Source: an uncultured virus (IMG/VR IMGVR_UViG_3300020050_007563) (taxonomy: Duplodnaviria; Heunggongvirae; Uroviricota; Caudoviricetes). From it: DNA of 20,000 bases. Both the position numbers and the translations under genes were made by a program. The stretch is taken from the IMG/VR virus record IMGVR_UViG_3300020050_007563; one strand, written 5' to 3'. Shown piece after piece: positions 4,347 to 19,998 of this stretch (the stretch's first letter is position 1; every line of letters starts with the position of its first letter). Under the pieces are notes generated by a model, which was given only the letters and a program-made list of their open reading frames with translations, did not search any database and was not told where the DNA came from.

Positions 4347-6004
4347 TCGGAGGACCATTCACACAACAAGCCGCAGGGGGTGACCTTGGTGAGTTGAGCG
4401 CCGAGGGGGTCGTTGCTGGGCAACAAGCAGCCTCTACGCCTATTCCGCTAGACCCTTCCTATCAGGCGCCGCCGGACACCTCGCGACCGCAGTATGCAGG
4501 AGGTGGTATTCGTGTGGTTCCGAGGGAGCTCAATCCGAACCGCGCCTATTCGGCACAGGAGTTCTATCCAGGACAGGAGCGCCCGAACGAATCGAGGGCT
4601 TCTGGAGGGGACCCGATCTTCGCCGCAAGTTCCGGACGCATTCCATGGGGCATCCTTGCCGACAGTGCCAATCAGGTCAAGCGGCAGCGTGCCGACTTGA
4701 TGAAGATGGTGCAGGGGAATGCCAATCAGTTCAAAGGAGTGGCGGCCCCTCCTTACGACATCGCCTACCAGAACTACGTCACTGACGAGTACAACAAATT
4801 CAAGCAGGCTCGCGCTGACGCGCTGCACGGCGGAGATCTGGATGCCGCCACTCGTGAACTCTACACGAACCCGCAGGCAAACGAGGAGTTCCAAGCATTC
4901 AATAGGAATCTGCTCGCCTACGGCAATGCGAACAAGTATCAGTTCGACCAAGTAGCCGACCTTCTGGAAAAGCAGCGCACCGGGGAGGAGTTTGTTTCTC
5001 CGGACACACTGGAGTATGCCCAGCGATTCATGGGAGGGAAGATGCCTTTCGATGACAAGGCCACACTTGGTGAGCGGGCCTACGATACCCAAGTCCTCGA
5101 CCGCAAGATCAGCCGGGACAAGCTCTGGAATACGGTCTACCTGCCGCGCCTGAAGCAAGAGATGGACACCCTTCAAGCCGAAGGCAAGGTCATCACCAAG
5201 GGCGGACGGCGTTTCCTTAGCGAGACGGAGACCCGCTCCCTTGATCGCATGAAGGAGCAGGTCGTCAAGGACATGGTTCACAAATACGGCCTCGATAGCG
5301 AGGATGAGGTCCGCCGTTTCGTTGATGCCAATACCCCTCGCTACGAAGTCACAGATCTGTCTCAACTTTCTCTGGGAAGTTCCGGTGGTTCCACTCCAAC
5401 AGAGAAGACATGGGCGGGCGGCGTGCAGTCCATTCCTAATAAGATCGCTCAGAACGACCCAACCACTGGTGTGAGGCGGGTCATTTCCGGACTGGAGCGT
5501 ATGCCGGTAGGGGCTGTGGTGGCGGGACGCCAAGTACCATTCAAGGACCCTGTGCAAGTATCGGATGGACGAGATACTCAGACCATGGTGGTCAGCTACA
5601 TAGACCGGAACAAAGATGGCGAGTTCGTCATCACTGGTTACGACCCGAACAATGTGTCAACGAGCGACAACTCGGATGAGATCAATGCAAGGATCGGAGA
5701 CCTTAATGCTGTGATACGGTCTAATAATACGCCTGCCGCCGATATCTCGAAGTACATAGCCAAGCGGGACTCCCTGACAGAACAACTGCGGACTTCGCAA
5801 AAGAGCAAACGCATGTTCTCAGTTCCGCTGCGAGACAACGAGCAGTTGATGAACGGCCTGCTCGGCGGAAATCTCCAGCGAGAACTGAATAAGTTCGGAG
5901 ACACGGCGAAGACCACACCGGAAGACTTCAGTGCCAAGTGGGCCAAACTACCCAAGGGTGGTAAACTTGTAGGCCCTGATGGTATTGAATACGAGAAGAA
6001 ATGA
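4343..6004 (+). CDS. Putative internal virion/ejection protein, 553 aa
   Basis: ATGA overlaps on both ends; helical composition; C-terminal 'WAKLPKGGKLVGPDGIEYEKK' resembles the LP.G.....PDG tail motif of phage ejection proteins. Confidence 0.55.
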   Translation: MIGGPFTQQAAGGDLGELSAEGVVAGQQAASTPIPLDPSYQAPPDTSRPQYAGGGIRVVPRELNPNRAYSAQEFYPGQERPNESRASGGDPIFAASSGRIPWGILADSANQVKRQRADLMKMVQGNANQFKGVAAPPYDIAYQNYVTDEYNKFKQARADALHGGDLDAATRELYTNPQANEEFQAFNRNLLAYGNANKYQFDQVADLLEKQRTGEEFVSPDTLEYAQRFMGGKMPFDDKATLGERAYDTQVLDRKISRDKLWNTVYLPRLKQEMDTLQAEGKVITKGGRRFLSETETRSLDRMKEQVVKDMVHKYGLDSEDEVRRFVDANTPRYEVTDLSQLSLGSSGGSTPTEKTWAGGVQSIPNKIAQNDPTTGVRRVISGLERMPVGAVVAGRQVPFKDPVQVSDGRDTQTMVVSYIDRNKDGEFVITGYDPNNVSTSDNSDEINARIGDLNAVIRSNNTPAADISKYIAKRDSLTEQLRTSQKSKRMFSVPLRDNEQLMNGLLGGNLQRELNKFGDTAKTTPEDFSAKWAKLPKGGKLVGPDGIEYEKK

Positions 6005-9000
6005 GCGACTGGACACCACCAAAGGACGCCCAGCCTATTGGATGGACGCCACCAAAGGACGCCGCTGCCGTCCCAAAGCCACAAGCCCAGACACCCCCGA
6101 ACACTCCGCAAGGAGCGGTGGCTGGGCCTACCACATTGGCTACGCCTGTGGTCGCATCACAAGGATTGTCCGAGGCGCCGCCTCCTCCATCCGCCGGGGC
6201 TTTCACGCCGGGTGCGCTCCAGACGAGCCTTGAGACCCAGATAGGGTCGAGTGCCCGCCCAAGGGGGCTCCTAACCTCCGAGCAGCGCCGACAGTACGCG
6301 GCGGAGATGAAGAAACTCCAGGCGTCCTTGCAGCAGCGATACACGACCGGATATGGGGAGTATGCAGAAACACGCTTCCGTCAAGACCCAGCCGTTGCGC
6401 AGAAAATGAGGACGCTCGAAGGGGCTCTCGTGCAAGATGCTGCGTTGGATCCCGAGGGAAGCCGTCGCGATGTGGAGATGCTCGAAGCGGAAGAGCGCGG
6501 CAAGAAAGAGATGAAGAACGCCTCTCTGATGGAAATGAGTCCAGAGGGGCGCGGTCGTCTGCGCGAGATCGCCGACAAGATGGATGCGCTCGATCCTCGT
6601 CGCGAGGAGACCTTCCTAATGAACCGAGACTACAAGCCACAAGGTCTCACAGAGCAAGACCCACGGATGGCGAAGCTCTATCAGGACTTTGAGCTTGCAG
6701 CGCATCCAGATCTGAACGACAAGAAGACCCGTTTCGACTCCAGAGAGATCACCGAGCGCCGTCTTGCTGGAGCCCTCGACCCGAAGGACGACATCGAACA
6801 CCAGATGGATGTGCTCCAGTTCGCGGGAAGGCGCCTGATGGGCCGCTACCTGCGGGCAAAGGATCTCATCGAACAGGGATCCGATGACCCCCAACTCCAA
6901 GTAGAGGTACAAGACATCGAGGAGGGCATGAAGTTCGTCCGCGACCGGGTTCGTCAGGAAGCTGAACGAGACCCTCGATCCTTCCAAGGCAAACTGAACG
7001 AACTCTCTCAGCGCATCTCTGAACAGGAGAACGAGATGAGTCGTGGCGATGTGAATGCGTGGCAAGAGAAGGCGCTACGCTCGGGTACGTTCGGCTTCAC
7101 CGACATGACCCGCAGCACCATCGCCGGGCTTGGGCGGCTCGTGGATCCCTCCGAGGGCTACTCCTTCAGCGACAAGCTCTCGGACTGGGCCGAGGAGATG
7201 TCGGGCGTCCAGGATGCTGCTCGCTCCAAAGAGGAGAAAGAGAGCCTCATGGGTAAGCTCGCTTATGGAGCCGGAGGAATGGCGGCCCTCATTGCCCCGA
7301 CCATCGCCACCGGAGGTAGTGCTGGCGCCACTCGCGCTGCCACAGTGGCGACATCCCTTGGCGCCGAGTACGAAGGCTATACTCGTCAGGCCATGGAAGG
7401 CGGAGCCACTGAGCAACAAGCCGAGCGCGGGGCGCTTGTGTATGCTCCGATCGCTGCTGCTATCGAACTCCTGAACCCCCAAGCGTATCTCGCGAACGGA
7501 GAAATGCGAGCACTCCGTCAGTCTGTCATTGAGGGCATTAAGGGAGGGGCTACCCCGAAGGGCGCCCTGAAGATGGCCCTCGAATCGGCTGAAGCGGGCA
7601 CGAAGGAAGCTATCGAAGAACTCTCCCAGACGCTCACAGAGCGGGCCACGAACGCCGGGGTGAACAAGCTCTCGGGGACTGACCTGAATGATGATGCTCC
7701 GACTGCCGCAGAGGCCGCAGAGACAGTTCTGGTAAGTGGCATTCTCGGGTCAGTATTCCACACTACATCCTTTATTGAGCCAACGCGGGCCGACCGAACG
7801 AAGTTCCAGGCGGAGTCCATGCAGTGGGCTGCTAAGAATCCAGAGAAGGCATTCGGCCTCATCAAAGGACAGATCCCGGAGGCCCAGCACAAGGTCGCTC
7901 AAGAGAGACTCGCGAACCTTGCGCGCACCTACAAGGGCAACGAGCTACTGGATATGGATCCAGTCAAGGCGGCGGAAGTTGCGGACATCGTGGAGCGAAA
8001 GAACGCCGTAGAGGAGGAGATCAAGTCGGCCCCCATGGATCCCGTGCTGGAGGCCGCGAATGGCGACCCCCGCAAGCGTGAAGCCGCCACCCTCACCACC
8101 GACATGATCGAGGCGCTTGGTATCCCGGCCAACAAGGCCAAAGCAGCCCTTGCATCCTCCGGCCTAGAACAGATGCCCGAAGGCACCAAGGCCATCACGA
8201 ATCCCGATGGCTCAGTGACCTTGGAGAAGAAGCCAGAAGCCGGAGAGAAAAAGAAAACCAAGGCCGTCGAGTCAGTCATGACCGAAACGGCCACCGAAGA
8301 AACACCAGCGCCAAATGAAGAACCAAGTTCAAAAGGGACGATTCGAGCCGATATTCGACAAATGCAACCCGCACAGGATATCGGGGGCGCTATTCGTTCC
8401 GGGGAAGGGGGAGGTGCTGGTGCGCCTAGTGAGGCGCAACCCGCCATTCAAGGACAAGTACAGCAACAACAAGCCATAGATGAAGGAGCAACAGCAATTA
8501 CAGAAACCCCAGCAGAAGCGACCACGGATCCAGGTGCAGCGCCCAGTCTTCCGCTGGACACTCCTGCCCCCGCAGGGCCAGCAATCGAGGCGGAGCCTGT
8601 TGTAAAAAGTGATGCGGATTTACAACCAAAACAGGCAGCCGATGGTGAGGTTATTCCGCAAGGCCATCCTGATGTACCGCAGGACGTACAACAGGATGCG
8701 CCAGTAGATCCGCAGCAGGTCAAGAAGACCGTCGCGACCAAGCGAGCCTACGAGGGAGAGTTCCGCGAAGGGGTCAAGCGTGAACTAGAGGCTCGCGGGC
8801 TGTATAGAAGTGTGGAGAGTTTCGAGGAGGCAGCCCAGAACGCCGCATCCCTGATCGAGTCAATAGGACTTGAGGCTGCTCTTGAGGCCGTTCGCAATAA
8901 CGACGTGAAGGGAGGCGCTGCCGCATACATCTACCGCAGTGCTCTAGAGGATCTGGATCGCCGGATATTAGCCTCCACAAACCCACAGGAGATACAGATC

Positions 9001-11901
9001 CTAGAGGCTCGTCAGGCCGAGATGGTGAGTGAGCTTTCTGACGAGGCCCTATCTCGTGGTCGATTCGGATCCGCCCTTGGTGACATATACCAGAACTCCG
9101 ACCTGAGATTCAATTCCGAGGTGAAAGCCGAGGAGTGGCGGAGGAGGTTCGGAGAGGAGCCCTCCGAGGAGGTGATGGCTGCATTTAATAAGCTGAGCGA
9201 AGAGTTCTCAGAGCTAAAGAAGAAGTTCCAAGAGGCGGAGATCCGAGCGGCACAATCCGAGGAGAAGGCACTTATTGAGGCCCTCAAGCGTATCGCTGCC
9301 AAAGAAAAGGCAAGGGGGCCGCGTGGTGAGAGAAAGCGAGTGGCTGACCGCATCCGTTCACTGAAGATCAAGAGTGATGTGGCCGGAGCCTTCATCATTC
9401 CGCCAAGTCTCTACAACGGCATCATCGAGACTGTTGCTCTTTCGGTGGAAGCTGGGGAGGCTATTGGTGCAGCAATCCAGAAGGGATTGAAGAAGCTCCG
9501 GGATAATGACGCCTATAAGAAACTGTCCGACGATGACAAGCAACTTGTCGAGCAACAGATAGGAGAGGCTGTCACCGGGGTGACACGTGACGATATTGAT
9601 GGGCGTCTCCGTATTCCGAAACAGATGGTCATCGAGGCTGTCCGCGATGGCGCCAACGACATCAACTCTCTCGTGGCGGCTGTCCGGGAACTCGCTCAGA
9701 TACCTGCCGAGGTCAGCGACCGGGAGATCCGCGACGCCATCACGGAGTACGGGAAGACCGCCGCCATGAGCAAGGATGAGCTTCTGGCGGAAGTTCGACG
9801 CATCAAGCGTATCGGCAGAGATGTATCAGCCCTTGAGGACATCCAAGCCAAGAAAAGACCCCTGCGCAGTGGCCTCCAGCGCGACAAGCTCACGGCAGAT
9901 GAGCGTGCGCTGAAGCGCAAGATCCGCGACGGCCTGAAAGATCTGCCGGTGGATCATGCTGCCCAGGAGCGTGAGCTGAAGACTGCTCTGGATGCGGCTA
10001 AGACCCGCACGCGCAACCGCATCGAGGATCTCCAACGCGAGATCGACGCCAAAGAGCGTACCCCTCGCAACACAAAAGAAGTAGAGCCGGATGCCGAACT
10101 GATCGCGCTCCGAGAGGAAAAGGACGCCCTTCAAGCTGTACACGATGAGGTGTTCAATGATCCGGCCATCACGGAAGAGGAGCGCCTGAATCGTCTACTG
10201 GCATCCACACAGCGCAGCATCGAGGAGTACGAGAAGCGCATCTCCGAGAAGAATCTCGACCCCAAGAAGAAGGCTCCGGTCAAAGAGACCCCTGAGCTGA
10301 AGGCGCTGCGCGAAAAGCGAGACGCTCTGAAGTCCGAATACCAGCAACTCCAAGAGGAGGCCGGAGTTATCGAGAAACGCCGACTCGAAGCCGCCAAGAA
10401 GGCGTCTGAGGCCCGTATTGCTGAACTCAAGCGACGGATCCAAGAGGGTGACTTCTCCAAGAAGGAGGCGCGTCCGGCTGTGGTGGATGATGAACTCACT
10501 AGGCTCAATGCGCAGAAGCTCCGTCTCCAAGAGGAGTACGACAAGGAGTTCTACAAGCATGAGCTGAAGAACCGCACCAAGACGGAAAAGGCCAAGGACT
10601 TTCTCTGGGAGGCATACGGACTGACACGAGCCCTGCAAGCCACGGGTGAACTCTCGTTCGTCTTGATGCAAGGGGGTGTTCAGACCATCAGTAACATCTG
10701 GCGCAAGCCCGGCGTTGTTGCTCGTGCGTTCCGCAATATGTGGGATGCCATGCGCAGCGAGAAGAAGTCCGACGAGTGGTTGCGTCGTGTGAAGTCGCAG
10801 CCGTGGTACCCGCAGGCTAAAGAGGCGAAGCTCGCGATCACCGAACCCCACGCGGAGGTGACGGCACGAGAGGAACTCTTCCTGTCGGACTGGACACGCT
10901 TGATATGGAATGAGATAGGCATCCCGTTGCAACTGCAAAAGAGCGGCGACGCTTTCAAGAGATGGGAGGCCGCCAACCCATTCCGCGCTCTGGAGCGTGG
11001 CGCAGCAGCGTATCTGGATACACTACGGGTGGAGCGCTATCTGGATGGACTCTCTGTGATGGAGAGGAATGGCGAGCAGCCCACCAAGCAGGACCGAGAG
11101 GATATTGCGGACGCCGTGAACACCTTGACGGGTCGGGGGTCGCTCGGGAAGTGGGGAGAGAGCAACTCTCGCGGCCTCGCGAAGATCTTTTTCTCACCAC
11201 GCCTGTGGTCGTCCACATTCAAGACCGCCACCCCATACGCCATCTACCACTTCGGCAAGATGACACCGACGGCACGCAAACTCGCCGTGCAGGATATGGG
11301 TCGATTCATCGGTACCACGATGGCCTTCGTGGCAATGGCTGGTGCGTATCTGAACAACGACGACGATGACGAGACAGGTGTGGAGATGGATCCGCGTAGC
11401 TCGGACTTCGGGAAGATCAAGATCGGGGACCGTCGTATAGACCCGTGGGGTGGCCGCATCCAACAGGTGGTGTTCTCGACCCGATTGGTGATGGGGGTTC
11501 TCGGTAAGGATGCCTACAAGAACGCCAGGGGAGAGGTCATGCCGCTGGGGGTGGATCACAGGTCTCCCACGATGCTGGATGTGGGCCTCCGGATGGCGAC
11601 GAACAAGTTGGCGCCGTCGGCATCTCTTCTTGCGGACTTCGCCTCCACCAAAACCAAAGTTGGTCGGGACGGACAAGCGACCCGCTACACTCCATTTGGT
11701 GAGGAGTATGACTTCATGGATTCCGTTACGGAAAAGCTCGTGCCGATCTTCGCGGGCACTGTGAATGACCTCGCTAAAGAAGATCCCGGAGCACTGGAAG
11801 GATTCCTTCTGTTCTACGCCTTCTTCGGAGGCGGTGTACAGGAGTACAAGGACCGCAAGAAGGAGACTTCCGATGAGCGCCGCGAACAACGCCTGAAATG
11901 A
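6001..11901 (+). CDS. Giant internal virion protein (large polyvalent-type), 1966 aa
   Basis: Uninterrupted ORF with a Pro-rich N-terminus, an Ala/Gly-rich amphipathic middle part, a disordered linker, long Glu/Lys/Arg coiled coils, and a C-terminal DPRSSDFGKIKIGDRRIDPWGG motif that I recognise from large phage virion proteins. Confidence 0.65.
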   Translation: MSDWTPPKDAQPIGWTPPKDAAAVPKPQAQTPPNTPQGAVAGPTTLATPVVASQGLSEAPPPPSAGAFTPGALQTSLETQIGSSARPRGLLTSEQRRQYAAEMKKLQASLQQRYTTGYGEYAETRFRQDPAVAQKMRTLEGALVQDAALDPEGSRRDVEMLEAEERGKKEMKNASLMEMSPEGRGRLREIADKMDALDPRREETFLMNRDYKPQGLTEQDPRMAKLYQDFELAAHPDLNDKKTRFDSREITERRLAGALDPKDDIEHQMDVLQFAGRRLMGRYLRAKDLIEQGSDDPQLQVEVQDIEEGMKFVRDRVRQEAERDPRSFQGKLNELSQRISEQENEMSRGDVNAWQEKALRSGTFGFTDMTRSTIAGLGRLVDPSEGYSFSDKLSDWAEEMSGVQDAARSKEEKESLMGKLAYGAGGMAALIAPTIATGGSAGATRAATVATSLGAEYEGYTRQAMEGGATEQQAERGALVYAPIAAAIELLNPQAYLANGEMRALRQSVIEGIKGGATPKGALKMALESAEAGTKEAIEELSQTLTERATNAGVNKLSGTDLNDDAPTAAEAAETVLVSGILGSVFHTTSFIEPTRADRTKFQAESMQWAAKNPEKAFGLIKGQIPEAQHKVAQERLANLARTYKGNELLDMDPVKAAEVADIVERKNAVEEEIKSAPMDPVLEAANGDPRKREAATLTTDMIEALGIPANKAKAALASSGLEQMPEGTKAITNPDGSVTLEKKPEAGEKKKTKAVESVMTETATEETPAPNEEPSSKGTIRADIRQMQPAQDIGGAIRSGEGGGAGAPSEAQPAIQGQVQQQQAIDEGATAITETPAEATTDPGAAPSLPLDTPAPAGPAIEAEPVVKSDADLQPKQAADGEVIPQGHPDVPQDVQQDAPVDPQQVKKTVATKRAYEGEFREGVKRELEARGLYRSVESFEEAAQNAASLIESIGLEAALEAVRNNDVKGGAAAYIYRSALEDLDRRILASTNPQEIQILEARQAEMVSELSDEALSRGRFGSALGDIYQNSDLRFNSEVKAEEWRRRFGEEPSEEVMAAFNKLSEEFSELKKKFQEAEIRAAQSEEKALIEALKRIAAKEKARGPRGERKRVADRIRSLKIKSDVAGAFIIPPSLYNGIIETVALSVEAGEAIGAAIQKGLKKLRDNDAYKKLSDDDKQLVEQQIGEAVTGVTRDDIDGRLRIPKQMVIEAVRDGANDINSLVAAVRELAQIPAEVSDREIRDAITEYGKTAAMSKDELLAEVRRIKRIGRDVSALEDIQAKKRPLRSGLQRDKLTADERALKRKIRDGLKDLPVDHAAQERELKTALDAAKTRTRNRIEDLQREIDAKERTPRNTKEVEPDAELIALREEKDALQAVHDEVFNDPAITEEERLNRLLASTQRSIEEYEKRISEKNLDPKKKAPVKETPELKALREKRDALKSEYQQLQEEAGVIEKRRLEAAKKASEARIAELKRRIQEGDFSKKEARPAVVDDELTRLNAQKLRLQEEYDKEFYKHELKNRTKTEKAKDFLWEAYGLTRALQATGELSFVLMQGGVQTISNIWRKPGVVARAFRNMWDAMRSEKKSDEWLRRVKSQPWYPQAKEAKLAITEPHAEVTAREELFLSDWTRLIWNEIGIPLQLQKSGDAFKRWEAANPFRALERGAAAYLDTLRVERYLDGLSVMERNGEQPTKQDREDIADAVNTLTGRGSLGKWGESNSRGLAKIFFSPRLWSSTFKTATPYAIYHFGKMTPTARKLAVQDMGRFIGTTMAFVAMAGAYLNNDDDDETGVEMDPRSSDFGKIKIGDRRIDPWGGRIQQVVFSTRLVMGVLGKDAYKNARGEVMPLGVDHRSPTMLDVGLRMATNKLAPSASLLADFASTKTKVGRDGQATRYTPFGEEYDFMDSVTEKLVPIFAGTVNDLAKEDPGALEGFLLFYAFFGGGVQEYKDRKKETSDERREQRLK
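6010..6063 (+). repeat. 21-bp direct repeat encoding WTPPKDA twice
   Basis: tggacaccaccaaaggacgcc (6010-6030) and tggacgccaccaaaggacgcc (6043-6063) differ only at one synonymous position. Confidence 0.9.
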
Positions 11902-12032
11902 CACACTCCACCATCACACTCGATCTGGACATCCAGATAGATATGGCCTTCTCGGGGTTCTCCGAGGGCTACCCGTATTTGGTCCTCACCTACGAGGGTG
12001 AGTGTGACTGTGAGTTCTGTCGGTCAGAATGA
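11898..12032 (+). CDS. Small hypothetical protein, 44 aa, C-terminal CxCxxC
   Basis: MTHSTITLDLDIQIDMAFSGFSEGYPYLVLTYEGECDCEFCRSE. It starts with the same ATGA stop/start overlap used elsewhere in the operon and is below the ORF-track cutoff. Confidence 0.5.
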   Translation: MTHSTITLDLDIQIDMAFSGFSEGYPYLVLTYEGECDCEFCRSE

Positions 12033-12320
12033 GGCTCGCTTCCCGGCCTCGATCTCTCGCATCCTGCCCTCTACCCCTTTGGCCCATCGCTGATTGATGC
12101 GGTGCTGCTCGGCTCGTACTCCCTTCTTCATCAGCCCGATCACCCACTCCAGCTTGTCGATCTCCTGACAGGCAATGGTGGCGTGCCTGGATTCTTGTGT
12201 CTCCTCAAAGCGAGCAAGGGCGGCATTGAACACCTTCAGGGCATCAATGACGTCGGGCGTTCCTACGGTCAAATGGTCGATCTCCGCTCTGGATGGGTCG
12301 ATGGTTCGGAAGGATCTCAC
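12024..12320 (-). CDS. Hypothetical helical protein, 98 aa
   Basis: GTG start; plausible composition; fills the gap between the terminator and the end of the virion operon. Confidence 0.55.
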   Translation of the reverse strand: MRSFRTIDPSRAEIDHLTVGTPDVIDALKVFNAALARFEETQESRHATIACQEIDKLEWVIGLMKKGVRAEQHRINQRWAKGVEGRMREIEAGKRASF

Positions 12321-12325
12321 TCCAC

Positions 12326-12359
12326 AAAGAAAAGCAAAAGCCCCGCTCTCGCAGGGCCT
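12326..12359 (-). terminator. Rho-independent terminator
   Basis: Minus strand GCCCTGC-GAGA-GCGGGGC (7 bp with one U-G, GNRA loop) followed by TTTTGCTTTTCTTT, about 20 nt after the stop of 12381..12704. Confidence 0.8.
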
Positions 12360-12380
12360 TCACATGAGCGCGTTTTGCTC

Positions 12381-12704
12381 TTACAGGGCGGTCACTACCC
12401 CTGCGGTGGACAGGGTTGCACCGTTGGTTCCAGCCTCGACGGCAGTACCCACGTTGGTGATGGCGGTGGAGACGGCGGCGAGGGTCGTCATGCGCTCCCA
12501 GCCCACGGTCGTTCCGTTGTCGTTCTTGATCAGCAGGACACCGTAGGTGCTGCTCAGGTAGGGGTTCATGCTACCGGCAGTGACGGCTCCCATCAAGCCG
12601 TTGTTGGCGATGGTCGGAGGGTAACTGGCGGTGGCGCCGGGGCCAACACTGAGGCTGTAACCGGGGATGTTGATCTGGTTTCCGCTGGGGAGGATCAGGT
12701 ACAT
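12381..12704 (-). CDS. Small Thr/Ala/Gly-rich protein, possibly a virion decoration protein, 107 aa
   Basis: Strong GC3 codon bias, with its own promoter upstream and terminator downstream. Confidence 0.7.
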   Translation of the reverse strand: MYLILPSGNQINIPGYSLSVGPGATASYPPTIANNGLMGAVTAGSMNPYLSSTYGVLLIKNDNGTTVGWERMTTLAAVSTAITNVGTAVEAGTNGATLSTAGVVTAL

Positions 12705-12720
12705 GGTGATAAGGTTTCGA

Positions 12721-12728
12721 CAAACGTA
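12721..12728 (-). promoter_or_regulatory. Bacteroidota-type -7 promoter element (TACGTTTG)
   Basis: Exact TAnnTTTG match 16 nt upstream of the ATG at 12704; no canonical -33 box seen. Confidence 0.55.
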
Positions 12729-12912
12729 TGGGGCTGGATAGATCGAAGTGTATTATACTTGTAGCGCATTGATGATTCTCTCTCCGCACCACTTCGCATT
12801 TAACTCCTCGATGGTGTGGGTGGGCTTGGTCTTGCGCATAACCCAACGTGGAATAGGGCGTCTGAAAATTCAGGGCGCCCAGAGGTGAGGCAAATGAACT
12901 AACGCAGAAGCC

Positions 12913-13122
12913 ATGACGAAAGAAGAAGCGCAAAGAATCCTGGATGCCCTTGATCAAATAGCCATCAAGTGCGGAGTCATCCGTTCGCAAGAAGAGGTTG
13001 ATCTCATTGAGCGCAACGCAAAGCTGATAGCGTCCAGAAAAGCCGCCAAGGAACGCCGCTTCGCCGACATGGTGGCCGATGCCGTTGTGCGCAAGTTGAC
13101 GGCCAATCCAATGGAGCCATGA
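12913..13122 (+). CDS. Hypothetical protein, 69 aa
   Basis: MTKEEAQRILDALDQ... typical small phage protein; ATGA overlap with the next ORF. Confidence 0.65.
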   Translation: MTKEEAQRILDALDQIAIKCGVIRSQEEVDLIERNAKLIASRKAAKERRFADMVADAVVRKLTANPMEP

Positions 13123-13250
13123 GTAACCGACCGGACCGCTGGGAAGGGTTCTTGACCAACGTAGGCCAAGGCATTGCCTTGGTGCTCATAGTCATCAGCA
13201 TCCTTGTGCTCTACAAGGGGTGTCACAACAAGCCCGTGTGGCCGCTATGA
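13119..13250 (+). CDS. Small single-pass membrane protein, 43 aa
   Basis: MSNRPDRWEGFLTNVGQGIALVLIVISILVLYKGCHNKPVWPL; ATGA coupling to 12913..13122; one hydrophobic helix; absent from the ORF track. Confidence 0.6.
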   Translation: MSNRPDRWEGFLTNVGQGIALVLIVISILVLYKGCHNKPVWPL

Positions 13251-13292
13251 TGAGAAAAAAGACGACCCCGTTCAGCGTACCAGCCATGTCGC

Positions 13293-13300
13293 TATCTTTG
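13293..13300 (+). promoter_or_regulatory. Bacteroidota-type -7 promoter element (TATCTTTG)
   Basis: Exact TAnnTTTG match immediately before the first helix of the structured region. Confidence 0.6.
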
Positions 13301-13305
13301 CGGCG

Positions 13306-13790
13306 TGGCACAAGAACTGAACGGAATGAAATCCTATGGGGTAGCCCCCTGTTCAGCGCTTGTGCCAACAACGTTCTTCAGGGCTTCCCCAATGATCCGC
13401 AAGGATCCTTACGCCTCACCAGCAATGGTGGGGCGTTCGCATTCGGTGCCTCTCAGAACGTTGAGCGTTCTTTCCGAGGGTACCATATCGTAGGCGTCAC
13501 CGGTTTTCACCTCGCCACCTCACCAAAAGGCGGGAAATACGACGCTTACACGTCCCTGTCAAAGCAAGGGTCAAAACGGGCACTGAGCCACTACCGCCAT
13601 CTCTCAACCCGGAACTGAAGTTCGCAGCAATGCAACCCTTGCGACGAAGGTCCACACAAGAAGCCGGACGGCACCAAGCCAATGCTACATGCAGAGGGGT
13701 GAGGAAGCCGGTGGAGGAAGGTGCGACAGGGTCTGAAGAGCGCACGCTTGGAACGCCGGAGGGGAACTTCAGGAAGTAAAGATGGCGGTG
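13306..13790 (+). ncRNA. Candidate large structured ncRNA (about 485 nt), family unknown
   Basis: At least 8 helices: 13306-14/13359-67, 13317-22/13351-56, 13369-77/13455-63, GATCC-GCAA-GGATC (13394-407), ACGCCTCACCA-GCAA-TGGTGGGGCGT (13411-36), 13490-98/13541-49, 13593-602/13780-89, 13615-23/13764-72. G-U pairs and GNRA loops fit the + strand. No convincing CDS. Confidence 0.65.
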
Positions 13791-13817
13791 TGTCAAAGAA
13801 GCAAAAACTACTCCAAC

Positions 13818-14093
13818 ATGGACATCAAGAGCATCTACAAGAGCACCTACGCATCAGAGTTGGCCAAGGCAAATCTTGATGCGAAACTCATCAATGAAGC
13901 GTCCGACCGCGCCCGTGAATCCCGCGAGCGGATGGAGGCACAGTATCTGTCCGACGGACAGGACCACTATCTGCGCTGCTTGGACAATGGCATGTCTGAG
14001 ACAGACGCCATGATCAGCCGCTTGGCTCTGTACGGACCAAGGGTGCAGATCAAGAGCATCGCCGAAATGACCCGCGTTCGCGTAATACGATAG
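13818..14093 (+). CDS. Hypothetical protein, 91 aa
   Basis: ATG at 13818 after an A-rich Bacteroidota-like initiation region (gcaaaaactactccaac); MDIKSIYKSTY... Confidence 0.65.
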   Translation: MDIKSIYKSTYASELAKANLDAKLINEASDRARESRERMEAQYLSDGQDHYLRCLDNGMSETDAMISRLALYGPRVQIKSIAEMTRVRVIR

Positions 14094-14170
14094 GCACCCG
14101 GTAGCCAACACGAACGTCTGATGAATCCGATGCTACAAAAAACCAAAAACGACCTTGAGCGCGCACATAC

Positions 14171-14348
14171 ATGAAGGCAGGGCGCGAGGTTCGCAGGAAG
14201 GGATCTAACTACGAGCCGGGTTCAACCCAGTGGACCTGGAGGAGTTGGTGGGGTATACGTGATCGCGGGGGCCTCGGTGTACGTCAGTGACTTCCAACCT
14301 GCGCTTTCCGACATGCTTGCGACCGACTGGGAGGTAGTGCCTAGCTAA
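14171..14348 (+). pseudogene. Frameshifted DUF2829/Tad2-like (Thoeris anti-defence 2) remnant
   Basis: MKAGREVRRKG (from ATG 14171) and SDFQPALSDMLATDWEVVPS* (14286-14348) match the two ends of the DUF2829 family pattern but lie in different frames. Confidence 0.55.
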
Positions 14349-14421
14349 CGGTGAACTTGACGCCGTGCAGCGCAGGGACTGTGCATCGGGCATGGCGGCA
14401 AGTGGTTATTGGTGGCCGTTC
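14342..14421 (+). repeat. attC-like imperfect palindrome
   Basis: GCTAAC at the upstream stop, arms CTTGACGCCGTGC (14356-68) / GCATGGCGGCAAG (14390-402), then TTGGTGGCCGTTC, which is complementary to the sequence at the end of the next gene. Confidence 0.45.
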
Positions 14422-14459
14422 TTTTTCATTCATTCGGCAGGAGGTAAAAAGGCAACACG

Positions 14460-14681
14460 ATGAAGGTTTACACGATAGCAGAGCACGGGCTTCCTGACAT
14501 GGACAAGCTCGTTGGTAGAGTTGCATTCATCTTCGATGGGTGCATCGTCAGCGGCTGGCCTCTTCGTCCAGACGAGAGCGGGAACGTACTGTGGGAAGCG
14601 GACGAGGACGTGGGGCGGCACGGTGTCTTCAACAGCGTGGAGAAGTACGTGGTGTTCGATGTCCCGGTCTGGGATCTTTGA
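14460..14681 (+). CDS. Hypothetical phage protein, 73 aa (DUF551-like pattern)
   Basis: E.GLP...V.F..DG....W....W.......V..Y pattern; A-rich upstream region; flanked by an inverted repeat. Confidence 0.65.
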   Translation: MKVYTIAEHGLPDMDKLVGRVAFIFDGCIVSGWPLRPDESGNVLWEADEDVGRHGVFNSVEKYVVFDVPVWDL

Positions 14682-14740
14682 ATGGCCACCAACGGTGGAT
14701 ATACGAAGATCGTCGCATAGCTAGCCACTCGACCCCCTCT

Positions 14741-15169
14741 ATGACTCCTTCCTTGAAGAATCGTAAGCGCATCATCCGAGCCCACGCCGATGTTCCCCGT
14801 CGGGTGTATAGCTTTACCCTCCACCCTGATAACGTCGAGCGTGTGCGCAGCAAGAAAGACAACCTCTCGGAGTGGGTTGATAGACAATTTCAGAACGAAG
14901 CCAACATCATGGACTGGAAGAACGAAGTGAGTCGGGCATGGAACCGCCTGTTGGAGAAGAGGTCAGATGCCGTCAAAGCCATCGCGACCGCATACCCTCC
15001 TACCCAAGAATACCGAATGCGCGGAGACACGAGCGATGCTCGGTATTTGATCCGCCAGTACGAAGAAGCCGATGGGGTCGTCTCCCTTCTGTGCGAGAAG
15101 ATCGAAGCGGGCTCCACCGATGGGTACGGCGTGTTCGGGGTGAAGCCACAAGACCTCGTGGCACTATGA
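14741..15169 (+). CDS. Protein with a putative N-terminal ribbon-helix-helix domain, 142 aa
   Basis: RVYSFTLHPDNVERVRSKKDNLSEWVDRQF shows the strand-helix-NLS-helix pattern of RHH proteins. Start moved to ATG 14741 because the track start overlaps the previous gene. Confidence 0.55.
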   Translation: MTPSLKNRKRIIRAHADVPRRVYSFTLHPDNVERVRSKKDNLSEWVDRQFQNEANIMDWKNEVSRAWNRLLEKRSDAVKAIATAYPPTQEYRMRGDTSDARYLIRQYEEADGVVSLLCEKIEAGSTDGYGVFGVKPQDLVAL

Positions 15170-15423
15170 GTGAGGCCATCTGGCGCCCTATGAGCGCCCA
15201 CGCTCAAGAGAAGCTCTACCGCAAGAGACGCCGCGAGATCCTCCTGATCCAAGCGGAGATCAAGACCGGAGCCAACGTCACCATCGAGCATCTTTGCGAG
15301 AAGTTTGACTGGTGTAGAACCAAAGCTCACTCAGCCCTTCAGGATATGTGGCTGCTGGGGGTGCTTAAACCCAAGAAGGATGAACCATCTGAAGACACTT
15401 CTGGATCAGGCAGTAGAGGCTGA
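15166..15423 (+). CDS. Winged helix-turn-helix DNA-binding protein, 85 aa
   Basis: RRREILLI...VTIEHLCEKFDWCRTKAHSALQDMWLLGVL matches a wHTH pattern; ATGA overlap with the upstream gene. Confidence 0.65.
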   Translation: MSEAIWRPMSAHAQEKLYRKRRREILLIQAEIKTGANVTIEHLCEKFDWCRTKAHSALQDMWLLGVLKPKKDEPSEDTSGSGSRG

Positions 15424-15865
15424 GGACTACGAGGCTGCTGCGGCGCTACGAGATAGGATCGCTGCGGGAGAAGTCGTGTCGGCTGGCCTCGCTGGTGCAG
15501 GTGCGACCTACTGGAATACTCCGATGGGAAGCATAAGTGCCACGCAGCAACTCCTGAACTACTTCCAGTCCATGGCGACGTGGGCTCAAGAGGCCGAAAA
15601 GCAGGCTAACCTCTCTCGATACCACTCCGAAGGGCTCCAGAACGAGCAAGACCGCATCCTAGAGATACGCACGCGCTCTCGGAAGTTCGTGCAGGATCAA
15701 CTCATCTCCCGCATCCGGAGGAAGTACGCCGACATGGATGCCTCGTGGGTCGCCCACAACGTCCTGCTCGTAACCGATCACCGCGACAACACTGAAAGGT
15801 ATGTGGTGGCGGGAGAGTGTCTGATGACAGTGAGGTACTCCACCAGTGGCTTCACCCTGGAGTGA
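15380..15865 (+). CDS. UVR (UvrB/UvrC) motif protein, 161 aa
   Basis: N-terminal LKTLLDQAVEAEDYEAAAALRDRI is a textbook UVR coiled-coil motif. Confidence 0.75.
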   Translation: MNHLKTLLDQAVEAEDYEAAAALRDRIAAGEVVSAGLAGAGATYWNTPMGSISATQQLLNYFQSMATWAQEAEKQANLSRYHSEGLQNEQDRILEIRTRSRKFVQDQLISRIRRKYADMDASWVAHNVLLVTDHRDNTERYVVAGECLMTVRYSTSGFTLE

Positions 15866-15964
15866 GGAATGGTGTAACTCTTCCTGGCATAAGGACAGTT
15901 GGCAAAGCACCGCGCCAACACTGGGAATGTTGAAAAACCGCGTTTCGGGGGTCAGAGGACCGAT

Positions 15965-15995
15965 TTTGGAAATGCGGGGTTCGATCGTATCTTTG
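15965..15995 (+). promoter_or_regulatory. Canonical Bacteroidota sigma-A promoter TTTG-N19-TATCTTTG
   Basis: TTTG at 15965-68, 19-nt spacer, TATCTTTG at 15988-95, ATG at 16000. Confidence 0.75.
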
Positions 15996-15999
15996 CCCT

Positions 16000-16149
16000 A
16001 TGGGATGGGATGCCGATTACCAGCGGGCTTACAGGCGTCAACGGCGTTGGGGCAACGTCATGGCGTGGGTTGGTGACCTAGTGCTCCCCGTGTTTGCTCT
16101 CGTGGTGGCGGTCGCCTTTCTAACTGTTGTGCTTGTCACTTCATCCTAA
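16000..16149 (+). CDS. Small single-pass membrane protein, 49 aa
   Basis: MGWDADYQRAYRRQRRWGNVMAWVGDLVLPVFALVVAVAFLTVVLVTSS; basic patch then a TM helix; sits directly behind a consensus promoter; absent from the ORF track. Confidence 0.65.
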   Translation: MGWDADYQRAYRRQRRWGNVMAWVGDLVLPVFALVVAVAFLTVVLVTSS

Positions 16150-16591
16150 GGAACACCAGGAGCACCCCCAGCATTCCGACGAACAGGGAACCGATAGAGA
16201 CGTAGAAGGCTATCCGGGAACGCCATATGGCGCCTTCCATCTCTCGAAACTGTCTGGTCTGGGTCCGTACCGCGATCTCGTCGCGCCAAGCATCGCACCC
16301 GGCCTTGGTTGCGCGCACCCAGAGCTTTTTAGGGAGGGGTAACCCGTCGTTGACTGCCGTTCGTTCCGCTTGCGAAAGTCCCTCCTCTGGGGAGAACTCA
16401 ACCCACTTCATGGTAACCAATGCGCAAGCGGCTTGGTGAACTTCCTTCATCGGTCGTTTGAGGTGGTCAACAGTCTGAAGCATGTTCATGAACGGCCCGG
16501 ATGCGGTGTGCCCGTATTCGATCAATATGGCCAGCAATTCGTGCGTTGCACGGGCTAGGTCCCGTTGGTCCATTCGTTCCTCGTTGCCCAT
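16136..16591 (-). CDS. Membrane-anchored protein with a wHTH-like N-terminus and C-terminal TM helix, 151 aa
   Basis: ...EVHQAACALVTMKWVE...WVRATKAG (wHTH-like), followed by IAFYVSIGSLFVGMLGVLLVFL (TM); ATG 16591 chosen as the start. Confidence 0.65.
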   Translation of the reverse strand: MGNEERMDQRDLARATHELLAILIEYGHTASGPFMNMLQTVDHLKRPMKEVHQAACALVTMKWVEFSPEEGLSQAERTAVNDGLPLPKKLWVRATKAGCDAWRDEIAVRTQTRQFREMEGAIWRSRIAFYVSIGSLFVGMLGVLLVFLRMK

Positions 16592-16601
16592 CGTCGCCAA
16601 A

Positions 16602-17168
16602 CTATTCGCCCAACCGATCGGGTACCGCAATCAACACACTTTCCCTGACCGCGAAGCAGACGATCGCGCTGTCTGTCTGCTCCAGATCATAGACCGGGCA
16701 TTTCCAGCTGTGTGACCAGTACCGCGCAACGACTTCCCAGACGGTTCCGCCTTGGGTCAGGACACGCGCACCGATGTTGAACTTCGCGGGACGCTTCCGC
16801 AGGTGGTCCACGGCGACCGGGCCTACTTTCCTTTCGGCGATGGCTTTCGCTTCGGCTTCTTCTTCGGCGATGGCTTCTGCGCTAGGAAGGATGCCAAAGC
16901 TTCTTTCAGCGTATGCCCGGACTTCAGCTTTATCTCCCCGGCTTCCTTGGCCTTGCTCATGCAGCCAAGATAGCATCTGCTTCCGGCATTCCTTGCATTG
17001 AACCAGACCAGCACGAACACGCTTGGCTGGGTTCGGCGTTATGCGCGTCATCCGCTTGGGGTCACAGTTGCCGCAATGCGGACACACTGGTCCGTCCGGC
17101 CAGATTACGCTTTCGATCAGGGTCCGGGCGTCATCTTCAGACAGGTTCTTCAGGTCGCGGATGGTCAT
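16602..17168 (-). CDS. IS1595-family transposase zinc ribbon fused to an unrelated SH3/KOW-like C-terminal domain, 188 aa
   Basis: SEDDARTLIESVIWPDGPVCPHCG...RAGLVQCKECRKQ is the IS1595 N-terminal Zn ribbon; no DDE domain follows; C-terminus KFNIGARVLTQGGTVWEVVARYW...YDL. The upstream extension in the ORF track runs through the tRNA and is not real. Confidence 0.7.
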   Translation of the reverse strand: MTIRDLKNLSEDDARTLIESVIWPDGPVCPHCGNCDPKRMTRITPNPAKRVRAGLVQCKECRKQMLSWLHEQGQGSRGDKAEVRAYAERSFGILPSAEAIAEEEAEAKAIAERKVGPVAVDHLRKRPAKFNIGARVLTQGGTVWEVVARYWSHSWKCPVYDLEQTDSAIVCFAVRESVLIAVPDRLGE

Positions 17169-17212
17169 GGCGATGGGGAAATTTGGATCGAACGGCGCTA
17201 CACAGTAGCTTT

Positions 17213-17285
17213 GTCCCCCGCCGGGAGTCGAACCCGGAACCTTGACCTTAGATGGTCGCGTTCTATCCGCTTGAACTACGGGGGA
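17213..17285 (-). tRNA. Atypical tRNA, probably derived from tRNA-Arg(UCU); 6-nt anticodon loop AUCUAA, anticodon ambiguous (UCU or CUA)
   Basis: Acceptor TCCCCCG/CGGGGGA; D arm GTTC-AAGCGGATA-GAAC; anticodon stem GACC/GGTC; variable loop AGGTT; T arm CCGGG-TTCGACT-CCCGG; discriminator C; CCA not encoded. Confidence 0.8.
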
Positions 17286-17295
17286 TGCGATTACC

Positions 17296-17337
17296 AGAAG
17301 CCGGAAAGCACTGCAATGCTGACCGGCTTCTCTTTTT
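17296..17337 (+). terminator. Terminator-like hairpin with a T-run on the + strand
   Basis: AGAAGCCGG (17296-304) / CCGGCTTCT (17323-31), inner AGCA/TGCT, followed by CTTTTT. Confidence 0.5.
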
Positions 17338-17340
17338 ATG

Positions 17341-17706
17341 TCATGAGACTTCGGTATTGAGGGCCACCCAAGGCTTCCGTCCGTTGGCTGTTTCATCTTG
17401 CGTCACGCGCTTGCCCTTCATCCGCCACAGCGCCTTGCTCACCTTGTGCGCTTCCATGCGCAGGCCGAACGCATCCAACAGGCGCACGATCTCGGGCACC
17501 TGTAACGGCTTCTTGGCGTGGCCCAGAACCTTCACGATGTCGTCCTGTGTTGCTTCCCGTGATGGGATCAAATGATCCACCTTGGGGTTGCTTCCCAGTA
17601 TGGCGGTGATCTCCGCGCTTGCTTCGTCAATGATGCGTTGAGCCTCTAAAGCCCTTGTCGTTGCTGCATGAATGCGGGCTATTTGGTCAGGCGTGAGGTT
17701 CATCAT
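17341..17706 (-). CDS. Coiled-coil plus winged-helix DNA-binding protein, 121 aa
   Basis: TQDDIVKVLGHAKKPLQVPEIVRLL...HKVSKALWRM matches a wHTH pattern; start placed at ATG 17706, just behind a consensus promoter. Confidence 0.7.
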   Translation of the reverse strand: MMNLTPDQIARIHAATTRALEAQRIIDEASAEITAILGSNPKVDHLIPSREATQDDIVKVLGHAKKPLQVPEIVRLLDAFGLRMEAHKVSKALWRMKGKRVTQDETANGRKPWVALNTEVS

Positions 17707-18199: not shown

Positions 18200-19300
18200 A
18201 TGGATCGTTTTGCAACCATGAAGGCGTGGCTCGCTGATGGGTCAGTGATCAATCGCGGTGACAAGGCCGTCGTCATTCCGGATGGGTATTCTGCCTCGGA
18301 AGGCGTATTCGATTACAAGGTCGGGACCGGGGACAAGTCCTTCCGAACGCTCCCATTTGAACCAGGGAGGGCATTCTTCGTGATCTCATCGTCTTCCGGA
18401 GGTGATGTCACCATTGCGAATGTCCCTCTTCCGGTCACATCCACCTCACTTGCTTTGGAGACCACGCAGGTTGATGTGAAGGATGCTGTGGAGCGATTCC
18501 AGTTCGATCTGTCTGGGAATCTGAAGACCACGGGCGGCGGGGGCGGGGTTGTTGATCAGGGGGCTCCGGGTCTGTTGGCATGGCCTGTCAGTGGCCCACT
18601 TACGGATGTGCAGTTAAGGGCTGCGGCTGTTCCGGTCAGCACCACCGCCCTTCCTCTACCTACTGGAGCAGCAACAGAAGTCACTGCGCAGCAGATCAGT
18701 GACCGCGTAGACCTGACCAACACCCTGGTCGGCAATATGTATGCTGGCGTCAGCAACGCCGATATGCGCTTTGCCACGCAAGAGGTTCGGGATAAGCTCA
18801 TAGTGGCGCCAGCCACCGAAGCCAAGCAAACGCAACCCGGCGTGGATATCGGGGACGTTACCATCAACAATGCCTCGGGTGCGGATGCCGTGAACATACA
18901 GGACGGAGGGAACTCCATCACGGTGGATGGGGCTGTGATGGTGTCTAACGCATTGGACCTTTCCGTCACTGCCGTGGGGACAGCCGGTGCGGCGGTGACG
19001 GCCACACTGCCCGCTGTCGCTGCTAGTTATCATCTGATCTCCTTCATTGAGATCACCATGTATACCACTGCTGCTAGGACAGGTAACGCCACGCCTGTGA
19101 CCGTAACCTCCACGAATCTGGCCGGATCCATCGCGTGGACATTTCCGACAGCCGCCGCCATAGGAACTACTGCCATAAGGAACATTGACAGTGCGACACC
19201 GATCAGGAGTTCCGTCGTGAACACCAACACAACCATCGTCTGTCCAGCCACCACGTCCGTGATATGGCGCGTCAACGTCTTTTACCGAGCAGGAGCATGA
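18200..19300 (+). CDS. Phage fibre-like/structural protein, 366 aa
   Basis: Contains the VSGPLTDVQLRAAAVPVS, LPLPTGAATE and VNIQDGGNSITVDG segments seen in phage fibre-like proteins; Thr/Ala/Val-rich beta C-terminal domain. Confidence 0.6.
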   Translation: MDRFATMKAWLADGSVINRGDKAVVIPDGYSASEGVFDYKVGTGDKSFRTLPFEPGRAFFVISSSSGGDVTIANVPLPVTSTSLALETTQVDVKDAVERFQFDLSGNLKTTGGGGGVVDQGAPGLLAWPVSGPLTDVQLRAAAVPVSTTALPLPTGAATEVTAQQISDRVDLTNTLVGNMYAGVSNADMRFATQEVRDKLIVAPATEAKQTQPGVDIGDVTINNASGADAVNIQDGGNSITVDGAVMVSNALDLSVTAVGTAGAAVTATLPAVAASYHLISFIEITMYTTAARTGNATPVTVTSTNLAGSIAWTFPTAAAIGTTAIRNIDSATPIRSSVVNTNTTIVCPATTSVIWRVNVFYRAGA

Positions 19301-19998
19301 GAAAGCGCCGCACTTGGTGCAAAGCATTCGAGCATTTCTCCAATGGCTAAGGACGCTTCTGCCGACGGTCTCAAGTGCTTGTTCGCGTTGTAGAACTTCA
19401 TCCAGTCGCTTACCGCTGTGTTGAACTGCAATGACCGAACGCGCTTATCCATTGACTCTCGCAATGTGTTCACGTCCACGGCATCGCTTCCATTCTCACT
19501 CAGCCACGTTCGCATCTTGCGCAGGAATTTAGAGACGCCCTTGATCGAGCCGTCCCGCCAATCGCCACCTTCGGTGTAGGGTCCAATGAACATCAGGTGC
19601 ATCCTCAGATCGTCGGGTGCAAAGTCATCCGGGCTGATCACATTGCCGGTACTCTTGCTCATCTTGGAGCCATTCCGCGTGATCATTCCCTGATGCACCA
19701 CGCGCTTGAACGGCTCCTCAGCCGGAACAACACCGATGTCGTACAAGAAGTAGTGGATGAAGCGAGCATAGATCAGGTGTGCGCAAGCGTGTTCAGGACC
19801 GCCGACACACAGATCGACCTGCTGGTATTTGTCCAGGCCACACAGCGCTTCCGTGTTCGTTGGGTCACAGTAGCGAACGTAGTAGAAGCTACTATCGACG
19901 AACGTATCCAATGTGTCGGACTCTCCTTCGATCGGAATCGGGCATCCCCACTTGCGTTGTCGGCTCACGCACCAGTCCGTCAGGCTCTCCAGCCAGTG
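19282..19998 (-). CDS. leuS: Leucyl-tRNA synthetase, minimised form; 5' part outside the window
   Basis: Frame open to the window edge (HWLESLTDWCVSRQRKWGCPIP). Motifs DTLDTFVDSSFYY, VDLCVGGPEHACAHLIYARF, QGMI, KMSKS, FNTAVS and FAP are all diagnostic of bacterial LeuRS. Confidence 0.9.
   Translation of the reverse strand, partial: HWLESLTDWCVSRQRKWGCPIPIEGESDTLDTFVDSSFYYVRYCDPTNTEALCGLDKYQQVDLCVGGPEHACAHLIYARFIHYFLYDIGVVPAEEPFKRVVHQGMITRNGSKMSKSTGNVISPDDFAPDDLRMHLMFIGPYTEGGDWRDGSIKGVSKFLRKMRTWLSENGSDAVDVNTLRESMDKRVRSLQFNTAVSDWMKFYNANKHLRPSAEASLAIGEMLECFAPSAALSHAPAR

Follow-up and report, generated by a model that had tools for sequence, protein, structure and literature searches.

A candidate long, structured leader RNA at a swappable accessory-gene slot of an uncultured wastewater phage

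Positions 13306-13790 of a 20,000-nt stretch of DNA from an uncultured wastewater phage (IMGVR_UViG_3300020050_007563; GC 57%; the whole stretch analysed is hereafter called the window) hold an excess of long helices that is real and statistically unusual, and for which a non-coding RNA reading is plausible. We tentatively favour, at a little less than an even chance, the explanation that the stretch is a long structured plus-strand RNA leading into an accessory-gene slot with exchangeable content; its transcription, selection on its fold and its action as a leader are what we infer from the evidence laid out below. Such a leader would be a lineage-specific, highly structured and mostly non-coding RNA, acting in cis as the ∼510-nt 5′ leader of an accessory or anti-defence gene slot. 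Transcription would start near 13306 at a host-type TAnnTTTG promoter, or else read through from two small upstream genes, and the RNA would carry, in this order, a long 5′ hairpin, GNRA-capped hairpins and long-range helices, with no terminator, before ending in an unpaired A-rich tail that may be the ribosome landing site for whichever gene comes next. The fold could stabilise the message or set its translation, possibly through a switch between two exclusive conformations, and the near-invariant 418-nt block could also provide a homology anchor for exchange of the downstream gene among related phages.

If the fold is real, an uncatalogued RNA of ∼0.5 kb would join the few long structured RNAs of crAss-type phages, all of them without a known function, and would form a new family within a kind of RNA of which there have been glimpses in such phages. 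It would moreover be tied to a slot where close phages exchange anti-defence genes, which suggests a role in expressing or exchanging counter-defence cargo. If an overlapping open reading frame (ORF) is real instead, the locus would amount to an ordinary orphan phage gene plus a structured spacer. The stretch is preceded in the window by large plus-strand genes (up to 11901), two minus-strand genes and two plus-strand genes of 69 and 43 aa, and is followed by more small genes.

Helix content and predicted fold

All six pairings listed in the first-pass annotation of this DNA, which had described a multi-domain, pseudoknotted RNA, are complementary as claimed: 13369-77/13455-63 (9 Watson-Crick pairs), 13490-98/13541-49 (8 Watson-Crick pairs and one G-U), 13593-602/13780-89 (10 Watson-Crick pairs), 13615-23/13764-72 (9 Watson-Crick pairs), 13498-507/13704-13 (8 Watson-Crick and two G-U pairs) and 13554-60/13725-31 (7 Watson-Crick pairs). 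The two GCAA-capped hairpins that it reported were also found, with stems of 5 bp and 11 bp. In 13306-13790 there are four perfect Watson-Crick helices of 9 bp or longer, compared to 0.38 ± 0.62 in 1000 dinucleotide shuffles, none of which reached four, and the flagged stretch had the top helix count (3) among 196 sliding 485-nt windows, making it the strongest long-perfect-helix outlier of the window.

The fold z-score of 13306-13790 was -4.72 on the plus strand and -2.38 on the minus strand, and the plus-strand segment 13201-13600 (z = -5.96) was the strongest of 78 scanned 400-nt windows. For the part of the stretch that is conserved among strain variants (13391-13808, plus strand; hereafter the module), z was -3.67 on the plus strand (0/100 shuffles) versus -0.97 on the minus strand (18/100 shuffles), bearing out the plus-strand-specific RNA folding that had been argued from G-U pairs; in the minimum free energy structure of the module, 9 of 127 pairs are G-U. 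This strand asymmetry argues for pairing in RNA rather than in DNA. Domain 4 alone gave only z = -1.75. Counting stems of 4 bp or more, GNRA hairpins occur three times in the 0.42-kb module versus 20 times in the 20 kb (plus strand). Both general hallmarks of a structured non-coding RNA, a fold more stable than that of shuffled sequences and strand specificity, were thus observed, with the caveat that fold energy alone is not decisive because the coding window 5601-6000 also gives z = -4.5. The latter segment, noted on both strands, lies inside a 553-aa gene, folds far better than its 100 shuffles and is without long inverted repeats.

Read along the plus strand, the predicted structure begins with Domain 1 (13306-13367), a 5′-terminal hairpin whose arms are 17 nt long and which encloses a GGGG/CCCC hairpin (pair probability 0.98). 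Within the module follow Hairpin A (13394-13407; 5-bp stem, GCAA tetraloop, pair probability 0.99-1.00), Hairpin B (13411-13436; 11-bp stem with one U-G pair, GCAA tetraloop, pair probability 0.98), Hairpin C (13445-13484; bulged two-part stem), Domain 3 (13490-13549; closed by 13490-98/13541-49) and Domain 4 (13593-13789), which is closed by the co-linear perfect helices of 10 and 9 bp. An A-rich tail (13790-13817), unpaired in the predicted folds, then leads into the ATG of whichever gene comes next.

The proposed domain architecture survived only in part: each helix is complementary, but the domains do not all form together in one nested fold. When 13306-13390 was present, the long-range helix 13498-507/13704-13 (spanning 13498-13713 on the plus strand; a pseudoknot or an alternative conformation) had p = 0.89, and the closing helices of Domains 3 and 4 had p = 0 (0.00 for each at full length). 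When 13391-13808 was folded alone, the same closing helices reached p of at least 0.97 (0.97 for Domain 3, 0.98-0.99 for Domain 4) and the long-range helix was disfavoured. The closing helix of Domain 2 (13369-77/13455-63) had p = 0 in both folds containing its two arms. The competing helices could represent true pseudoknots, a conformational switch or an over-reading of the sequence.

Strain variants and the downstream gene slot

Part of 13100-13900 is present in 20 public runs from 15 studies, four of which were compared, as contigs only; the contigs from these four span portions of the module and differ from it little or not at all. The activated-sludge run X8 supplied a 7,891-nt contig that has 12700-12817, is without 12818-13170, has 13171-13257, carries 127 other bases instead of 13258-13390 (plus strand), keeps 13391-13808 with seven differences, and then has 424 bases instead of 13809-14167 before the window sequence resumes. 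G001, a 38-kb IMG/VR record that is 99% identical to the window except for one replaced block, shows no difference from the window over 13000-13811, with flanking DNA differing by ∼1%, and its downstream replacement substitutes 421 nt for 356 nt; the X3 contig passes into G001-type sequence at 13808. Breakpoints among these sequences thus fall at 12817/13171, at both module ends (the 3′ one at 13808-13811) and at 14168. Part of the stretch is kept nearly unchanged among strain variants, and since the module is near-invariant and 13258-13390 is diverged, we take 13391-13808 to be the conserved unit. The region of the 91-aa cassette described below (13859-14163) had no coverage in any of the four compared runs, which should not be taken to mean that it is absent.

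The gene that follows the module was found to differ between these 99%-identical genomes. In G001 it encodes a 200-aa protein whose C-terminal 65 residues (134-198) match the Tad2-like domain PF11195 (37.2 bits versus a cut-off of 25; E = 4.4e-9), and a Tad2-like gene lies directly after the module in G001, X3 and X8. The swap involves 13809-14260 of the window, to which an intact Tad2-like gene corresponds in G001 (L002:11902-12504, minus strand). In the window version, a 91-aa gene (13818-14093, plus strand; gene-like codon score of 0.27) specific to the window by strain comparison is inserted, followed by a Tad2-like gene remnant (14168-14348, plus strand) that has lost its ∼130 first codons and is frameshifted by a 5-nt deletion. 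The 91-aa cassette is flanked by an 18-nt A-rich repeat (13794-13811 and 14136-14153, 83% alike), and its gene had no family match. The start codon stands 7-10 nt past the breakpoint in both versions, after the A-rich tail. A role of the stretch as regulator of the 91-aa gene in particular, as suggested initially, finds no support in these comparisons, that gene being a strain-specific insert. The likeness to Tad2 (Thoeris anti-defence 2) resides in the domain match of the G001 protein; this protein differs by a 130-aa N-terminal extension, the window gene is truncated and frameshifted, and the anti-defence role is a prediction from similarity.

Five of the seven X8 differences in the module are T13451C, G13479A, T13481C, A13539G and C13727T. 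Six natural substitutions are known, four of them in Hairpin C: three keep predicted or proposed pairs (A13457G changes A-U to G-U, T13481C changes G-U to G-C, and C13727T keeps the 13554-60/13725-31 pairing with G-C changed to G-U), two are unpaired (T13451C falls in the Hairpin C bulge), and one, G13479A, breaks a terminal helix pair. Introduced in silico, the five X8 changes cost +0.9 kcal/mol versus +3.0 ± 3.6 for random transition sets, 30% of which cost no more. The natural substitutions are therefore compatible with a plus-strand RNA, without being significant or any kinder to the fold than random changes.

An overlapping reading frame and a candidate promoter

The first-pass annotation had described the stretch as free of any credible gene. 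A 123-aa ORF (13247-13618, plus strand) covers its 5′ two thirds, but codon usage, substitutions and missing relatives argue that this ORF is non-coding. The corresponding rival explanation, which we regard as rather unlikely while giving it real weight, is that 13247-13618 is an orphan protein gene translationally coupled to the 43-aa gene and followed by a structured untranslated spacer of ∼200 nt, the fold in the coding part being incidental or secondary. The start codon of the ORF indeed overlaps the stop codon of the upstream 43-aa gene as ATGA, like the overlaps of the window's large genes and typical of coupled phage genes, and it was called by gene callers in public data (P0121 and P0123), as was a 116-aa counterpart from the diverged variant (P0122). 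The latter, whose longest contig is 7,891 nt, is taken as the X8 variant's translation because its amino-acid changes are exactly those that the substitutions predict. The ORF frame is open in this variant, since the 133-to-127-nt replacement is an in-frame 6-nt length change; P0122 shares 14 of 48 aligned columns with the window translation of 13258-13390, indicating that the replacement is a diverged homologue and not foreign DNA, and G, W, P and C, residues that tend to be conserved in proteins, are among those kept across this segment.

Other properties of the ORF resemble those of wrong-frame ORFs. It scored -0.08 per codon, compared to 0.09-0.43 for credible phage genes, and 28% of 46 wrong-frame ORFs (mean -0.19 ± 0.20) scored at least as high; its GC content by codon position is flat (0.52/0.52/0.60 versus ∼0.58/0.43/0.70 in real genes). 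Codon usage is nevertheless a soft test for small accessory genes, because the upstream 43-aa gene also scores low (0.10 per codon, below most credible genes). None of the five substitutions known in the ORF frame is synonymous, and several are radical: S>P, G>E, Y>H and Y>C occur in P0122 and N>D in P0121. Searches for the ORF returned neither a Pfam or PHROG family nor an Atlas neighbour, and among 1.84 billion representative proteins the only relative was the variant's own ORF. The ORF thus lacks the phage-like codons, mostly synonymous changes and wider relatives of a protein-coding gene. AlphaFold gave a mean pLDDT of 32.8, with values below 50 at all 123 residues, although this evidence against the ORF is weak because the underlying alignment comprised just 3 rows. 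A deletion in the X8 variant removes the start of the upstream gene, and the ORF called there begins at a different codon. Finally, stop codons are scarce in several frames of either strand of the region, and a 99-aa minus-strand ORF was called in no assembly. Judging from these sequence properties, we infer that the ORF is probably spurious. Reading the stretch with alternative genetic codes (TAG = Q, TGA = W) yielded no more convincing gene.

P0122 also bears on the 5′ hairpin: its fixed codon letters (G-T-Y-D ... Y-V-C-A) suggest that the basal helix of Domain 1 persists in the variant, with G13314-C13359 changed to A-U and the A13315/G13358 mismatch changed to a pair, as would follow from the protein alignment rather than from the DNA.

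With regard to the promoter, TATCTTTG does lie at 13293-13300 (plus strand), 5 nt upstream of 13306, and matches the pattern TAnnTTTG of a candidate Bacteroidota-type -7 box. The promoter claimed for the stretch would be this box, but no clear -33 TTTG precedes it, and both the box and Domain 1 are inside the diverged segment. TAnnTTTG was found five times in the window versus 3.46 expected, i.e. without enrichment, and four of the five matches lie between genes, as judged from the ORF list. A full Bacteroidota-type promoter candidate (TTTG, ∼20 nt, then TATCTTTG, with the octamer at 15988 identical to the copy at 13293) was noted at 15964-15995 (plus strand), just upstream of a 49-aa ORF (16000-16149). 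Around the 5′ end of the stretch, CUGAACGG can pair with either of two CC(C/U)GUUCAGCG copies, one 5′ and one 3′ (13266-13277, 13317-13324, 13347-13358); these alternative pairings would give mutually exclusive hairpins if transcription begins upstream of 13306, and one of them places TATCTTTG in the loop of a 10-bp hairpin.

Neither a terminator-like site nor a TAnnTTTG box was found in the interval that separates the module from the following gene. This lack of a terminator, together with an A-rich tail that runs straight into a start codon, favours a cis-acting leader over a free-standing ribozyme or scaffold, so that of the two options offered initially the complex cis-regulator gains and the free-standing ribozyme, scaffold or decoy loses ground.

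Homologues, known systems and genome context

A cmscan search of Rfam 15 matched no family at gathering score in the stretch, including GOLLD, ROOL, RNase P, tmRNA, group I and II introns and known ribozymes, in agreement, as regards RNase P, tmRNA and the introns, with the earlier failure to recognise such signatures. The sole Rfam match over the whole window was a tRNA (17213-17285), and with E up to 10 the region 12800-14600 gave five chance-level matches to snoRNA, miRNA and lncRNA families, none of them inside 13350-13808. Exact-pattern scans with two module stretches returned nothing from viral contig and genome contig collections, a degenerate search with the minus-strand 99-aa ORF returned nothing from viral contigs, genome contigs or a set of 5.8 billion proteins, and neighbouring proteins used as queries led to no close loci. 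The conserved C-terminal half of a 1966-aa protein (6001-11901, plus strand) retrieved 40 viral and 75 metagenome loci. Comparison of these loci with 11900-16500 by blastn, nhmmer and tblastx found nothing in common except 222 nt in one of them (L044); in L045, the closest relative that could be used (53%), tail-fibre-like genes occupy the corresponding position, and whole-record BLAST of the 40 viral records turned up nothing longer than 20 nt (matches of 14-20 nt, E of at least 0.03). Relatives in which the 1966-aa protein is 53% identical or less have none of this region. A single-sequence covariance model (R1; 13391-13552, 162 nt) matched only G001 and the window in searches of 41 viral records and 81 sources, and the upstream sequences of five Tad2-like relatives (L126-L130) were not similar. 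By these searches, which over 40 related viral records and 80 loci recovered nothing but the element, it is confined to one narrow lineage, and we found no published description of this RNA in the literature.

Among known phage RNAs, GOLLD (RF01998) and ROOL (RF03087) are, like the element described here, large, ornate, phage-borne and of unknown function. The element differs from them in having no Rfam match (at gathering score, or with E up to 10), in running directly into a gene and in being restricted to one lineage.

By analogy, the closest precedent for the leader reading would be the early long non-coding RNAs of phi14:2, a crAss-like Cellulophaga phage, which come from the g004-g005 and g005-g006 intergenic regions and, in the accessible part of the report, are described as transcribed above most genes, persisting through infection and of unknown function (bioRxiv 10.1101/2020.03.07.982082). 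As far as that part of the report goes, both cases involve a long gene-free stretch among small non-structural genes of a crAss-type phage, the difference being that the phi14:2 RNA was observed as a transcript whereas the present element is known from DNA sequence alone. The window phage, moreover, matches the crAss family just weakly (muzzle domain at 31 bits, P22-like portal).

The abundance of the phi14:2 RNAs late in infection, as given in the same part of that report, could also be cited for a large structured RNA of a new class (a decoy, scaffold or ribozyme) that stands alone, acts in trans and, once processed from a transcript, counters a host defence together with the neighbouring anti-defence gene. 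We consider this improbable. Size, GNRA tetraloops, long-range co-linear helices and possible pseudoknots do resemble those of large tertiary-folded RNAs, and the element sits in an accessory slot adjoining a Tad2-like gene; however, nested folds set the pseudoknot helices in competition with those of the domains, the element is confined to a narrow lineage, and it shows neither a terminator, a recognisable processing site nor a ribozyme family match. In an RNA-labelled run (X15), the only exact contigs on a 1.8-kb stretch cover 13496-13761, as a released RNA might, but this run, available as contigs only, is flagged as probably DNA. No better a chance is given to the specific version in which the 418-nt block is a new pseudoknotted RNA class that would be released and work with the Tad2-like protein, its two folds constituting a switch.

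Slightly more improbable still is a DNA-level module, i.e. a conserved spacer for recombination and regulation (promoter plus homology anchor) with a functionless RNA fold: the mosaic breakpoints at both block ends and at 12817/13171, the A-rich repeat bracketing the 91-aa cassette and the analogy to cassettes that mediate shuffling in T4-type phages would fit it, but strand-specific folding and near-invariance over 418 nt are more than a homology anchor needs, the stretch shows no iterons or tandem repeats, and the helix excess is left unexplained. The cassettes in question, PeSLs, are mobile conserved promoter/stem-loop regulatory cassettes of T4-type phages (PMC2839356, PMC4122927). Going by the accessible portions of these two papers, the present block would resemble PeSLs in being conserved non-coding regulatory sequence that borders variable genes and at which strain differences break. 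The block differs in its 418-nt length, its elaborate fold and its occurrence as one copy plus a short A-rich repeat, with no dispersed family: alongside the breakpoints at 13808-13811 and 14168, only the 18-nt repeat recurred, and the module is single-copy in G001.

Three other candidates were rejected: a group I or II intron (no flanking split gene, no Rfam match), a replication origin (no iterons, no AT-rich tract) and a retron, guide-RNA or transposon RNA (no adjacent partner gene).

The phage itself is weakly crAss-like and its host is probably a member of the Bacteroidota. In G001 the portal is P22-like, and a 1602-aa protein weakly matches the crAssvirus muzzle domain (31 bits versus a cut-off of 27). 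The crAss-like label is tentative because no GenBank phage matched the RNA stretch (blastn), the 553-aa protein or the conserved part of the 1966-aa protein. In this last protein the C-terminal half (residues 900-1966) is conserved across many uncultured phages of ∼70 kb, often next to varied effector domains, with 29-53% identity overall among 29 aligned relatives; the N-terminal halves of the relatives are variable and carry assorted precomputed Pfam domains. The protein looks like a polyvalent virion or injected protein.

Several features lie in the 3′ part of the window. A class I methionyl-tRNA-synthetase-like protein is encoded at 19282-19998 (minus strand) and, as a 441-aa protein, in G001 (L002:5643-6968, plus strand; PF09334, E = 2e-39). 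An ORF at 16602-17396 (minus strand) encodes an IS1595-type transposase zinc-ribbon domain (E = 9e-13); as its 5′ part overlaps the tRNA at 17213-17285 (minus strand), its true start is probably downstream of the tRNA. This tRNA, which is also present in G001, has an unusual 6-nt anticodon loop (AUCUAA), and ARAGORN gives it no name; if read as CUA, it would be an amber suppressor. Nine of the ten confident genes end in TGA, and TAG is used only in the 91-aa gene.
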